Positions 57,997 through 61,546 of a DNA stretch of 64,000 nucleotides are shown here, in pieces. Position 1 is the stretch's first letter. Every line of letters starts with the position of its first letter. Under the pieces are notes generated by a model. That model ran no database searches. It saw only the letters and a list, made by a program, of their open reading frames with translations, and was not told the origin of the DNA. The DNA comes from Centroscyllium fabricii (lineage: Eukaryota), in NCBI GenBank assembly GCA_051313645.2, contig JBNRSN020000005.1, positions 10,850,001 to 10,914,000 of the forward strand, written 5' to 3'. The position numbers were made by a program, and so were the translations under genes.

Positions 57997-59020
57997 ATAA
58001 CTTATATTTAAAGAGCTTCTGTCGTGCAGTGAAATGTCCCAGGGTGCTTTATAAAGTGAGGGGTGTACACTGAGCAGGAAGGAAGACGGGGAGGTGATCA
58101 AAGATAGGTCGAGGAATTAGGCTTGGAGGAGCCCCTTGAAGGTGGGGGGGAAGAGGTTTAGGAAGAGAATTCTGGATGTGGTGGAGTGGCAGGAAGGACG
58201 GATGAGCAAAATACCAGAGCTGGGGGGATGCACGTTGGGAAGTAGAGGAACTGTAGATGTAAAGTATTTTATCCATTGAATCCAATGAGTAGATTTGTAG
58301 AATCTTGCAGCGCAGCAGGGGGCCATTCAGCCCGTCATGCCTGTGTGGGCTGTTTGAAAGAGTTGTCCAGTTTAGTCCCACATCCCAGCCTTTTCCCCAT
58401 AACCCTGTAAATGAGTCCTCTTCAAGTACACGTCCAATTGCCTTTTGAAAGTTCCTATGGAATCAGATTCCACCACCCTTTCAGGTAGTGCGTTCCAGAT
58501 CAGAACAACTCTGTGTGTGAAATAATTTCCCCTCATTTCCCCGCTAATTCTTTTGTCAATTATTTTAAATCTATGACCTCTGGTTGCTGACCTACTTGCC
58601 GAGGAAACAGTTTCTCCCTACTTGCTCCATCAAAATCCCTCATAATTTTGAATATAGAAACATAGAAGATAGGAACAGGAGTAGGCCATTCGGCCCCTCG
58701 AGCCTGCTCTGCCATTCAATGAGATCATGGCTGATCATCCAAACCCAGCACCCTGTCCCTGTCTTCTCCCCATATCCCTTGATACCTTTAGCTCTAAGAA
58801 TATCTCCATTCGGTCTCCCCTTAACCTTCTCTGCTGTAAGGAGAACAATCCCAGTTTCTCCAATCTCTCCATAGAGGTAGAGTTGTCCCCAGTATACGAC
58901 TTGTTCAAATTGGCAATGCTATTCTACGCGGCATTCGAGCTCAAGAACCCTGACATGCTCACTCTGACCCAGGCTCAGTACTCGCTGCTATAACCAATAT
59001 TTTCTTCTTTTTACACATAG

Positions 59021-59122
59021 GCTTCTTCATATTTGTATTCCATTGTGCTCTAAAAGAAAATGTACAGAAGCAATGGAGGCGATACCTTTGCTGCGGCAGA
59101 TTCAGACTCCCGGAAAATTCAG
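59021..59122 (+). CDS. ADGRG6: ADGRG6 exon ([34 protein letters not shown])
   Basis: acatag acceptor, gtagga donor. End of TM7 and helix 8. Confidence 0.95.
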
Positions 59123-59144
59123 GTAGGATCCAGATCAGCTTTCG

Positions 59145-59379
59145 TTCAAATTCAAATTCAAATATTATTTCTCACATGTACTAAAATACAACGCGTGCAA
59201 TCTAGACAATGAAATGCTTTCTTTACGAGCCGAACGCACCGCGCAACAAAGAACACTAAGCTGCCCGGCACGCCCGGAGCCCGTAAGATGGCAGCCACCT
59301 CACCGGCGCCATCATCATAGGTCCCGTTCTCGCACCACTCCGGCTTCTCCTGCTGTCAAAGTTCAACGTTCTTTGACCA
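59145..59379 (-). mobile_element. Rex/Babar-like LINE/SINE 3' tail fused to the EIF3I retrocopy
   Basis: Minus strand reads gcatttcattg...gtacatgtgagaaataata(tttgaa)3. Family name is from recall. Confidence 0.55.
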
Positions 59380-60076
59380 ACCGCAGCCCATCTGCCCGTC
59401 ATTCGTGAACACGATGATGACACCGCCGAAGTCAAAGCCGCCAGTTCTAACCGCAGAGCCCGTTCCAAACAGAGCGAGCCGCTTCCTGCTCCACAGTCCC
59501 AAAGTCCACACGAGTCATCTGCAGAACCGGCCCAGTCAACGTCCACACACCACACCGCTCCGGCGCGTCCACTGCAAGCGCCGAGCCTCTCACCGTTCAG
59601 GGAACACCAGACACCAACAACGGTATCTCCTGCACAGGAGAACACCAAATTGCGCCCCCGGCTGCATTCATAGAAACATAGAAACTAGGAGCAGGAGTAG
59701 GCCATTCGGCCCTTCGAGCCTGCTCCGCCATTCAATGAGATCATGGCTGATCCTCCAAACCCAGTACCCCGTCCCTGCCCTCTCCCCATATCCCTCGATC
59801 CCTATCGAGCCTGCACCGACACATATCTCACCCTCTCCCCGTAACCCCACATATTCAATCCCCCTAACACTAAGTGTCAATTTATCCTGGCCAATCAACC
59901 TAACCCGCACATCTTTGTGATTGATCTTTCATGACCTTGCAACAAGATGGGTTTCATGGCGGCCGCTGGTGGTGGTTGCCCGGCTGGCGGCCTCTCCCTC
60001 ACGGCCCGGTGTCTCGGCGCTTCACTCGCTCCGCCGCAGCATGGAGAGTAGGAGAAGCCGGAAGTACGTCATCGGC
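59380..60076 (-). pseudogene. EIF3I: Processed, 3'-truncated EIF3I retrocopy with 5'UTR, split by a SINE, A-to-G hypermutated
   Basis: gccgccATG at 59957 gives MKPILLQGHERSIT. After the SINE it reads ECSRGRNLVFSCAGDTVVGVWCSLNGERLGACSGRAGAVWCVDVDW-AGSADDSCGLWDCGAG, then after a frameshift RLALFGTGSAVRTGGFDFGGVIIVFTNDGQMG. Colinear with recalled EIF3I, no introns. Confidence 0.93.
59670..59917 (-). mobile_element. 5'-truncated V-SINE inside the EIF3I retrocopy
   Basis: Family match; about two codons (QI) are missing at the site. Confidence 0.9.
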
Positions 60077-60500
60077 CTCTCAAATTATTCTGGTCATTTC
60101 AGGAAGGACCCATGCAATTTGACCATCTCTTGTACTCCACTTAACTTAATACATGGTGTGGGAGCTCCTCCAGCGGTTCATTGGATGGACATACTGGCCA
60201 GGAACGATTCAGCTTCAAGTCCCAATGTGTCAGCCATGGCTCAGTGGGTCGCACCTTTGCTGCTGAGTCAGAAGGTGTGGGTTCACAGTCCCACTCCAGG
60301 GACTTGAGCACAAAAAATCTAGGCAGCACTGAGGAAGTCTTTTGGATGAGACGTTAAACTGAGGCCCCATCTGTCCTCTCGGGTGGATGTAAAAGATCCC
60401 ATGGTAGTATTTCAAAGAAGAGCAGGGGAGATATCCCCAGTGTTGTGGCCAATATTTATCCCTTAAGCAACATAATAAAAACAGATTAGCTGGTCATTGT

Positions 60501-60735
60501 TGTAATGATATCAGCAAATAGTGATCATATTTGCCTGTTTGATTATCTATGCCTTACCAGCAGAGGGCATGTGACAAGAAGCAAGTTAGTTGAGTTGCAG
60601 TATAGGATTGATCTCCAAGATGGAGTCTCCCTGTAAGCCTCATGTAAATCAGTAAGTTACTTGAACATACGTTAGATTAAAAAACATTCTCCTTCATCAA
60701 TGTGCCGTCATTGAACCCACATAGAAAACAATACA
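60501..60735 (+). mobile_element. Solo LTR (235 bp) in a Deu-SINE, TSD ATT(G/A)T
   Basis: attgt|TGTAATG...CAATACA|attat; ATTAAA near 60677; removal restores ggtcattatcacattg. Confidence 0.75.
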
Positions 60736-61546
60736 ATTATCACATTGCTGTTTGTGGGAGCTTGCTGTGTGCAATTGGCTGCTGCATTTCCTACATTACA
60801 ACAGTGACTACACTTCAAAAAGCACTTCATTGGTTGTAAAGTGCTTTGGGACATTGGGTGGTCGCGAAAGGCACTATATAACAGCAAGCCTTTCTTTTAG
60901 TCTGAGATGAGTTTGCTGATGTCACTAAATCTGGGCACAGTGCCCCTGGGCTAGTGGGGAGGGGAGAAACCAGCTCCAATTACTCTTCCTGATTTTTATC
61001 CAGTTAGCCTTGCTGGAAAGGCCTTGCCATCAAGTAGGCATGGAGGTCAAACTCGGTTGCCTTGGCCCTCAGGGTCAATCCTCTCTGTCTAAGGTCACAA
61101 CTGAAGAATGGGCATTTTGAGTGAGGTACTGAAGGATGTCTAGTGTCCCTGGAACTGTACCCCAGCTTCAATTGTCACCTTCAGGAGAAGAAGATTGGAA
61201 GGCGGGAAAGATCCTCACAGAAACCTTTGCGTTCTGTATCTGTATAAAGTCGCTATACCCCTCAAAACAGCCACTGAGTAGAGTTGCCAGCTTTCCAGAA
61301 TTGCCTTGGTGTCTTCAGGAATTCAAGAGTAATATCCAGGGCACTGCTACGAGCAAACAGGAGAAAACTCCGAGGCTAATTGTGAGAGATTTTTTTCATT
61401 TTCTTTGATCATTTATTAGTCATAAAAATGTTGTGGATGGGATACAAAAAAGACCCTTTGACTGACAGTGAAGCATCACCCAATCAGGCAATTAAGAGCC
61501 CATTTGCTTTCCAATTGGCATGAGAAGGCTGCGAGGATGGACCAGT

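Follow-up and report, generated by a model that had tools for sequence, protein, structure and literature searches.

Here we report that the EIF3I sequence in the window (the whole 64,000-nucleotide stretch analyzed) belongs to a dispersed, non-coding, EIF3I-headed repeat family whose RNA was very probably made double-stranded, hyper-edited by ADAR and copied by a LINE, and then amplified from edited masters. Judged from the sequences of its copies, ADAR most likely rewrote the element RNA many separate times before it was copied into inherited DNA. An earlier note on the window had taken the segment for a fossil of ADAR hyper-editing in which a housekeeping mRNA was itself reverse transcribed into the germline. 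Strand-specific A>G change, the ADAR order of 5' neighbours and the spliced germline EIF3I sequence all stand, whereas direct retrocopying of the mRNA does not, being contradicted by a common non-EIF3I leader, a junction in the middle of exon 5, a module and a tail.

The window copy and its parental gene

On the minus strand of 59380-59669 the base count gives 14.1% A, and 22 of the 41 surviving A are preceded by G and two by T, matching what had been estimated (about 14% A, about half of the surviving A after G, two after T). Equally A-poor 290-bp windows amount to 2-3% here, making low A on its own a weak sign. The protein match of the segment is EIF3I (PDB, E 2e-17). An intron-containing EIF3I gene with canonical introns lies at 26.07-26.11 Mb of contig C834 in this 7.2 Gb genome (G000), and at four exon junctions its introns are missing from the window copy.

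When compared with the spliced exons of this parent, 59669-59378 shows A>G at 36 of 74 positions, T>C at 3 of 72, G>A at 1 of 82 and C>T at 5 of 65, with eight substitutions of the remaining types in sum. Dominance of A>G over sense-strand T>C, tested in this way against the genome's own EIF3I, has p=3e-10, and a second p for the spectrum/context comparison is 4e-5. A neighbour bias is likewise present, A>G affecting TA at 11/11, AA at 10/21, CA at 13/22 and GA at 2/20 sites. Since the parent has A at the changed sites, the direction of change is A to G, and the edited residues did not pre-exist in the parent. By codon, changes explicable by A>G alone are non-synonymous in exactly 23 cases, as had been estimated, and synonymous in five; other changes fall in 7 non-synonymous and 9 synonymous codons, more than the five or six changes previously allowed for. 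Of the codon types listed earlier, four Y>C were recovered, while T>A occurs three times and not four.

The parental gene differs from the unedited element at 12 positions. In exons 2-3 the parent reads P32, A33 and T49, but T, V and N stand at these positions in the element and in three named shark/ray proteins; because T32, V33 and N49 are common to the element and these proteins, the states of the host gene are derived, and by this comparison the element keeps an older EIF3I state than the present host gene. For a little-changed copy, the closest named proteins come from rays and a shark, and horizontal transfer of the EIF3I head is unneeded since T32, V33 and N49 match named shark/ray proteins. 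A lone diverged copy of a later EIF3I exon (residues about 210-246; L070, G000:C800:57497099-57497245) is unrelated to the family head.

While the coordinates first given do delimit EIF3I sequence, the full feature is larger, extending over 60073-59145 on the minus strand and split by a later 241-bp insertion. It begins with a leader (60049-60073) in which the 5' ends of full-length copies fall, which differs from the parent's promoter and of which 19 nt are the reverse complement of part of the 3' module. Alignment to the parent identifies EIF3I exon 1 (59955-60048; 5' UTR, with the ATG at 59957-59955), spliced to exon 2, the start of which (codons 2-16; 59911-59954) is nearly unedited in this haplotype by comparison with the parent and other copies. 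The insertion (59670-59910) is another common repeat, missing in sister copies and found at many unrelated loci, which is probably derived from a shark SINE carrying a CR1-type tail and would be its 3' half. EIF3I resumes at 59378-59669 with codons 17-120 (the rest of exon 2, exons 3 and 4, and the first 109 nt of exon 5) in the hyper-edited haplotype H1, with an 18-nt deletion private to the window copy and a 1-nt deletion common to most copies. There follow a GC-rich 3' module (59226-59377), common to the non-autonomous families B and C, across which A>G declines to background, and an unedited, LINE-like 3' tail (59145-59225) ending in a short tandem repeat. No target-site duplication of the window copy was seen. 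A 19-nt inverted match between leader (60070-60049) and module (59357-59339, minus strand) closes a 17-bp stem around the EIF3I head.

A dispersed retroposon family with an EIF3I head

Full-length copies of the family measure about 700 bp and comprise a 25-nt leader, EIF3I exons 1-4 plus 109 nt of exon 5, the GC-rich module and the tail. A protein search of the genome gave 944 first-look candidates; the 150 that were scored all matched, at 71-100%. The genome contains 357 matches to an exact 20-nt motif in which three sites are degenerate, a number that is a floor as exact matching skips diverged copies. All three sites are G in 253 of these, all A in 22 (one being the parent exon) and mixed in 82, so that 335 of 357 carry at least one G. 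The all-G motif occurs 131 times in forward and 122 times in reverse orientation, and the bias thus tracks the sense strand of the element, not the chromosome strand. At least eight same-strand copies with one motif state lie within 270 kb at G000:C446:39.66-39.93 Mb, a cluster likely made by local segmental duplications.

Many copies are 5'-truncated to varying extent with a fixed 3' end, and the family has no reverse transcriptase (RT) of its own; retroposition is indicated by the spliced exons, together with this variation at the 5' end and the repeat tail. Repeats of at least 8 nt occurred in 7 of 40 flank pairs versus 37 of 777 shuffled ones, at inconsistent positions, and thus gave no clear target-site duplications. 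Introns have been removed, as in a classical processed pseudogene, but the mRNA 3' end with poly(A) and a target-site duplication are lacking: the EIF3I part stops in mid exon 5, where it is joined to a foreign module, and the second half of the mRNA is not attached. The dispersal, fixed 3' end, variable 5' truncation and lack of RT are those of a non-autonomous non-LTR retroposon. The head, being EIF3I mRNA, is not the tRNA-, 5S- or 7SL-derived head of a pol III SINE, and ARAGORN scans of 58000-61500 and of 29 family C loci gave no tRNA. The EIF3I family is consequently not a processed pseudogene of the classical kind, and not a pol III SINE either.

These observations bear on the reading first proposed, a one-off processed pseudogene of a hyper-edited EIF3I mRNA. 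It would account for the spliced exons and the A>G excess, but we consider it scarcely credible: there are at least 357 motif matches, the chimeric structure with one leader, junction, module and tail in all copies refutes it, the edit pattern of the window recurs in 20 sampled copies, unedited copies exist, and no second mRNA half is attached.

Two larger sister families share module and tail under other GC-rich, non-coding heads, B with 2225 and C with 5489 candidates. Family B (L131-L160), family C (L216-L245), L045 and L048 are non-tRNA, with heads that begin with TTCCGG repeats, and family C has an SVA-like GC-rich internal tandem repeat. At one locus (L004:2037-2178 and about 1322-1367) a copy is flanked by inverted parts of its own module and tail.

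Edit patterns and editing context across copies

Edit patterns were compared in 115 loci, 97 of them distinct, drawn by five queries (edited protein 20, UTR 15, tail 20, module 30, unedited DNA 30); the sample is query-biased, so that its proportions are not those of the family, and includes a few family B copies that match by the module alone. The unedited consensus takes the majority base, and A where the parent has A, with two columns, and four UTR columns, set by hand. Relative to it, the coding heads of all sampled copies show A>G at 2305 of 8094 positions (28.5%) and T>C at 109 of 6919 (1.6%), with A>C (50) and A>T (55) at 0.6-0.7%. Edit load is bimodal: among 82 copies with at least 40 scorable A, 25 lie below 10% and 54 above 30%. 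The 55 edited copies with at least 55 scorable A fall into 17-20 distinct patterns by average linkage, depending on the cut-off; average linkage was used instead of single linkage, which fused lineages via mosaics. Mosaics of different copies occur (L113, L088) and may cause the number of lineages to be overestimated. Simulated independent events reached the similarity threshold of 0.65 in 0.03% of pairs, and the mutual similarity of the pattern representatives was 0.42, versus 0.45 for independent events.

H1, the haplotype of the window copy, is the largest subfamily in the sample (20 copies). Its consensus and the unedited one are separated by 40 coding changes, every one of them A>G, distributed by 5' neighbour as T 15/17, A 13/32, C 11/32 and G 1/25. 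The private changes of the window copy are neutral (A>G 3/83, T>C 3/120), and its edits were thus inherited from an edited, amplified H1 master. Non-A>G markers of their own distinguish H1, H2, H3 and the L055 group, H4 being without a specific one. Unedited, H1, H2 and H4 copies each lie about 3% from their own consensus, which indicates that they spread in about the same period. The existence of unedited copies places the capture of EIF3I first, the element RNA having been edited later, many times.

A few copies carry edits beyond those of their lineage. L002 retains 38 of the 39 core edits of H1 and is changed at 8 of 63 additional sites, versus 32 of 1178 in other H1 copies (p=3e-4 for a single copy chosen after inspection). 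L089 has 34 of the 35 H2 edits and 12 others that cluster 3' and may reflect recombination instead of a second round, and L009 and L016 have a deletion and 43 edits in common, with nine private to each. L055, L077 and L095 were considered as H1 plus a second round and rejected, as they hold just 67-76% of the H1 core edits, as unrelated copies do, and have their own marker. Editing raised CpG in the 358-nt H1 coding head from 12 to 22 and GC from 45% to 56%. At EIF3I codons 20-22, a G run made by A>G has grown into G-rich microsatellites of up to about 35 nt (L003, L008, L010, L017, L018, L020, L027), a growth seen in several H1 copies.

Taking one copy for each of 18 lineages, the edit rate by 5' neighbour is T 0.78, A 0.55, C 0.38 and G 0.20, the same ranking, U>A>C>G, that has been described for human ADAR1 and ADAR2 (PMC3113232). 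No preference for a 3' G was found in these lineages (G 0.43, A 0.49, U 0.45, C 0.42); one is reported in hyper-edited human reads (PMC4365171), and is described in PMC3113232 as weak for human ADAR1 and as lacking in older Xenopus ADAR1 data, the 3' preference being the weaker of the ADAR features. The highest edit loads, 57-61% of A, match a ceiling of 50-60% of A for long dsRNA (PMC3113232). All codon positions are hit alike. At the level of the A_deamin domain, not split among ADAR1/2/3, ADAD and ADAT, the genome has five multi-exon loci.

Along the element, 12 representatives of edited lineages show change at non-GA sites of 21-35% in leader/UTR (a noisy figure, given 9-18% in unedited copies). 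The rate is 39-63% over the coding head and 13% where the module begins, and drops to 3.5% deeper in the module and 1% in the tail. The unedited tail may show where the duplex stopped, or may have been kept by selection for a tail that a LINE can recognise. In family B, 306 test motifs are unchanged and none doubly changed; nearest-to-query samples give A>G at 39 of 2446 sites in 30 family B copies and 109 of 2744 in 30 family C copies. Given that family B has the same module and tail unedited, neither the module nor shared copying machinery is sufficient for editing, and a module-borne antisense promoter was rejected as sufficient cause on the same count (0 versus 306). No clear sign of ancestral editing was seen between the family B and C consensus sequences in two blocks (A>G 6 vs G>A 2, and 0 vs 2).

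Error-prone reverse transcription that places C opposite A, through dNTP imbalance or an adenine-specific RT as in diversity-generating retroelements, would also give sense-strand specificity and bursts, needs no dsRNA partner and sits well with the missing 3'-G bias. We nevertheless regard it as quite improbable: A>C and A>T are at background, the changes stop in module and tail while the coding head is heavily changed, family B with the same tail is spared, and the 5' order fits ADAR. Adenine deamination in DNA, by ADAR or an unknown enzyme acting on the second strand or on an RNA:DNA hybrid at insertion, would provide a deaminase-type context without antisense RNA, the source of which was not found. 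It is highly improbable, because hits on first-strand cDNA would read as sense T>C, which is at background, and because such a process would not spare sister families or the tail. We know of no natural vertebrate DNA adenine deaminase.

Contigs of public sequencing runs (not raw reads) were aligned to the minus-strand unedited copy L102, in which T>C corresponds to sense A>G. The sense A>G skew was 63 vs 13 in X1 and in X7 and 23 vs 1 in X10, that is, in three of eight runs aligned, from three coded organisms and three studies, one of which may be the window's own source; of the other five, X11 was mixed, X18 thin, and X13, X15 and X19 gave mRNA-like contigs only. This recurrence weighs against GC-biased conversion, neutral decay, APOBEC G>A with misread polarity or an assembly artefact as the origin of the pattern. 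While the head is GC-rich and sequencing artefacts can make mismatch clusters, those described being G>A (PMC2873906), an explanation of this kind is extremely unlikely, as there is no T>C excess, strand asymmetry and polarity contradict it, the parent gene and three named shark/ray proteins carry the A-state residues, and haplotypes are shared at unlinked loci in both orientations.

Putative duplex partner and helper LINE, and meaning of the family

An intramolecular hairpin was rejected as the source of the duplex: the unedited consensus folds into no long cis hairpin, its longest helix being 17 bp, and sites with more predicted pairing are edited less often (rho -0.37). No inverted head was found within about 1.5 kb in 106 loci, and no antisense head in 101 kb around the parental EIF3I gene. 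Regarding the copying machinery, the family tail motif resembles, at the motif level, the tails of LINEs in the same genome that encode RT and ALKBH8_N. Such RVT_1 + ALKBH8_N LINEs are abundant, some with long open frames, and presumably belong to the Rex1 clade. Genome searches yielded no LINE with the exact family tail, and a guessed tail pattern for the helper LINE had no matches. One RT + ALKBH8_N LINE family (L165:1-1980) is very abundant and young, with 110,489 first-look candidates and open frames of up to 1803 aa. The idea, hinted at by L109, that the module is the 3' UTR of the helper LINE was discarded, as 12 of 12 examined copies of that LINE have a different 3' UTR, making L109 a nested insertion.

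The following course of events would account for ADAR editing of the element RNA. Spliced EIF3I exons 1-5 were joined in mid-exon, perhaps by template switching, to the module and tail of an older non-autonomous family, an arrangement seen in all copies, and unedited copies, which are present in the genome, spread as well. Element transcripts may then have paired over about their first 500 nt with antisense RNA in trans, for which read-through across an oppositely oriented copy is the leading candidate, with about an even chance of being correct. ADAR would have edited 25-60% of A, to judge from the signature, and a Rex1-like LINE could have recognised the intact tail and copied I as G. Several edited copies, that of H1 with the window copy included, became subfamily sources, and a few copies likely passed through a second editing round.

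Parts of this course have parallels. In the avian retroviruses RAV-1 (Felder 1994) and avian leukosis virus (Hajjar and Linial 1995), both cited in PMC8586724, ADAR-linked, clustered A-to-G hyper-editing of retroelement RNA was likewise reverse transcribed into DNA; the EIF3I family differs as a host-mRNA-derived, non-LTR, germline-fixed element with most copies affected, many separate events and edited copies that were re-amplified. As in APOBEC3 'DNA editing' of retrotransposons, deaminase hypermutation is kept in genomic copies, but APOBEC3 yields G>A through C deamination of minus-strand cDNA (PMC2873906), whereas the EIF3I family shows A>G in ADAR 5' context. Hyper-edited Alu RNAs (PMC4365171) share the dense A>G and depletion of upstream G; Alu edits, however, are confined to RNA, arise from nearby inverted repeats and are enriched for downstream G, while the EIF3I edits are in DNA, with no inverted partner found and no such enrichment.

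SVA_F1, with a MAST2 exon, and the chimpanzee STK40-SVA (PMC6139936) are similarly composite non-autonomous retroposons that gained a host-gene 5' end and founded subfamilies, although SVA heads join by splicing and use L1, in contrast to five spliced exons joined in mid-exon here; the EIF3I tail is of LINE type without poly(A), unlike that of SVA, and the likeness is one of build, not of sequence homology. A conserved 3' end with a short tandem repeat is also typical of stringent 3'-tail SINE/LINE pairs (PMC3747384), the RT + ALKBH8_N LINE tails of this genome and published Rex1 LINEs (PMC6274825) being the comparison, but the head is an mRNA 5' end and not tRNA, 5S or 7SL. No published account of such a family was found in the literature, searched outside most subscription journals and databases of repeats.

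Editing of RNA is not normally inherited, and here it has apparently been written into the germline many times and amplified. It is possible, with a probability we place slightly below even, that the family evolves mainly via ADAR, editing being its chief mutational engine, with most copies derived from edited RNAs, edits stacking over rounds, and edited masters perhaps out-replicating unedited ones through escape from dsRNA sensing or silencing. Consensus building and age estimates for repeats would misread such families, since a single step can introduce about 40 differences. The parent gene, unedited copies and an unedited sister family serve as built-in controls with which the frequency of edited-RNA retroposition can be tested, as can the help or hindrance of editing to mobility and past germline ADAR preferences. 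If the reading is true, the family would provide a site-resolved natural record of ADAR specificity in the germline, in a genome that retains both the parent gene and the unedited ancestor.
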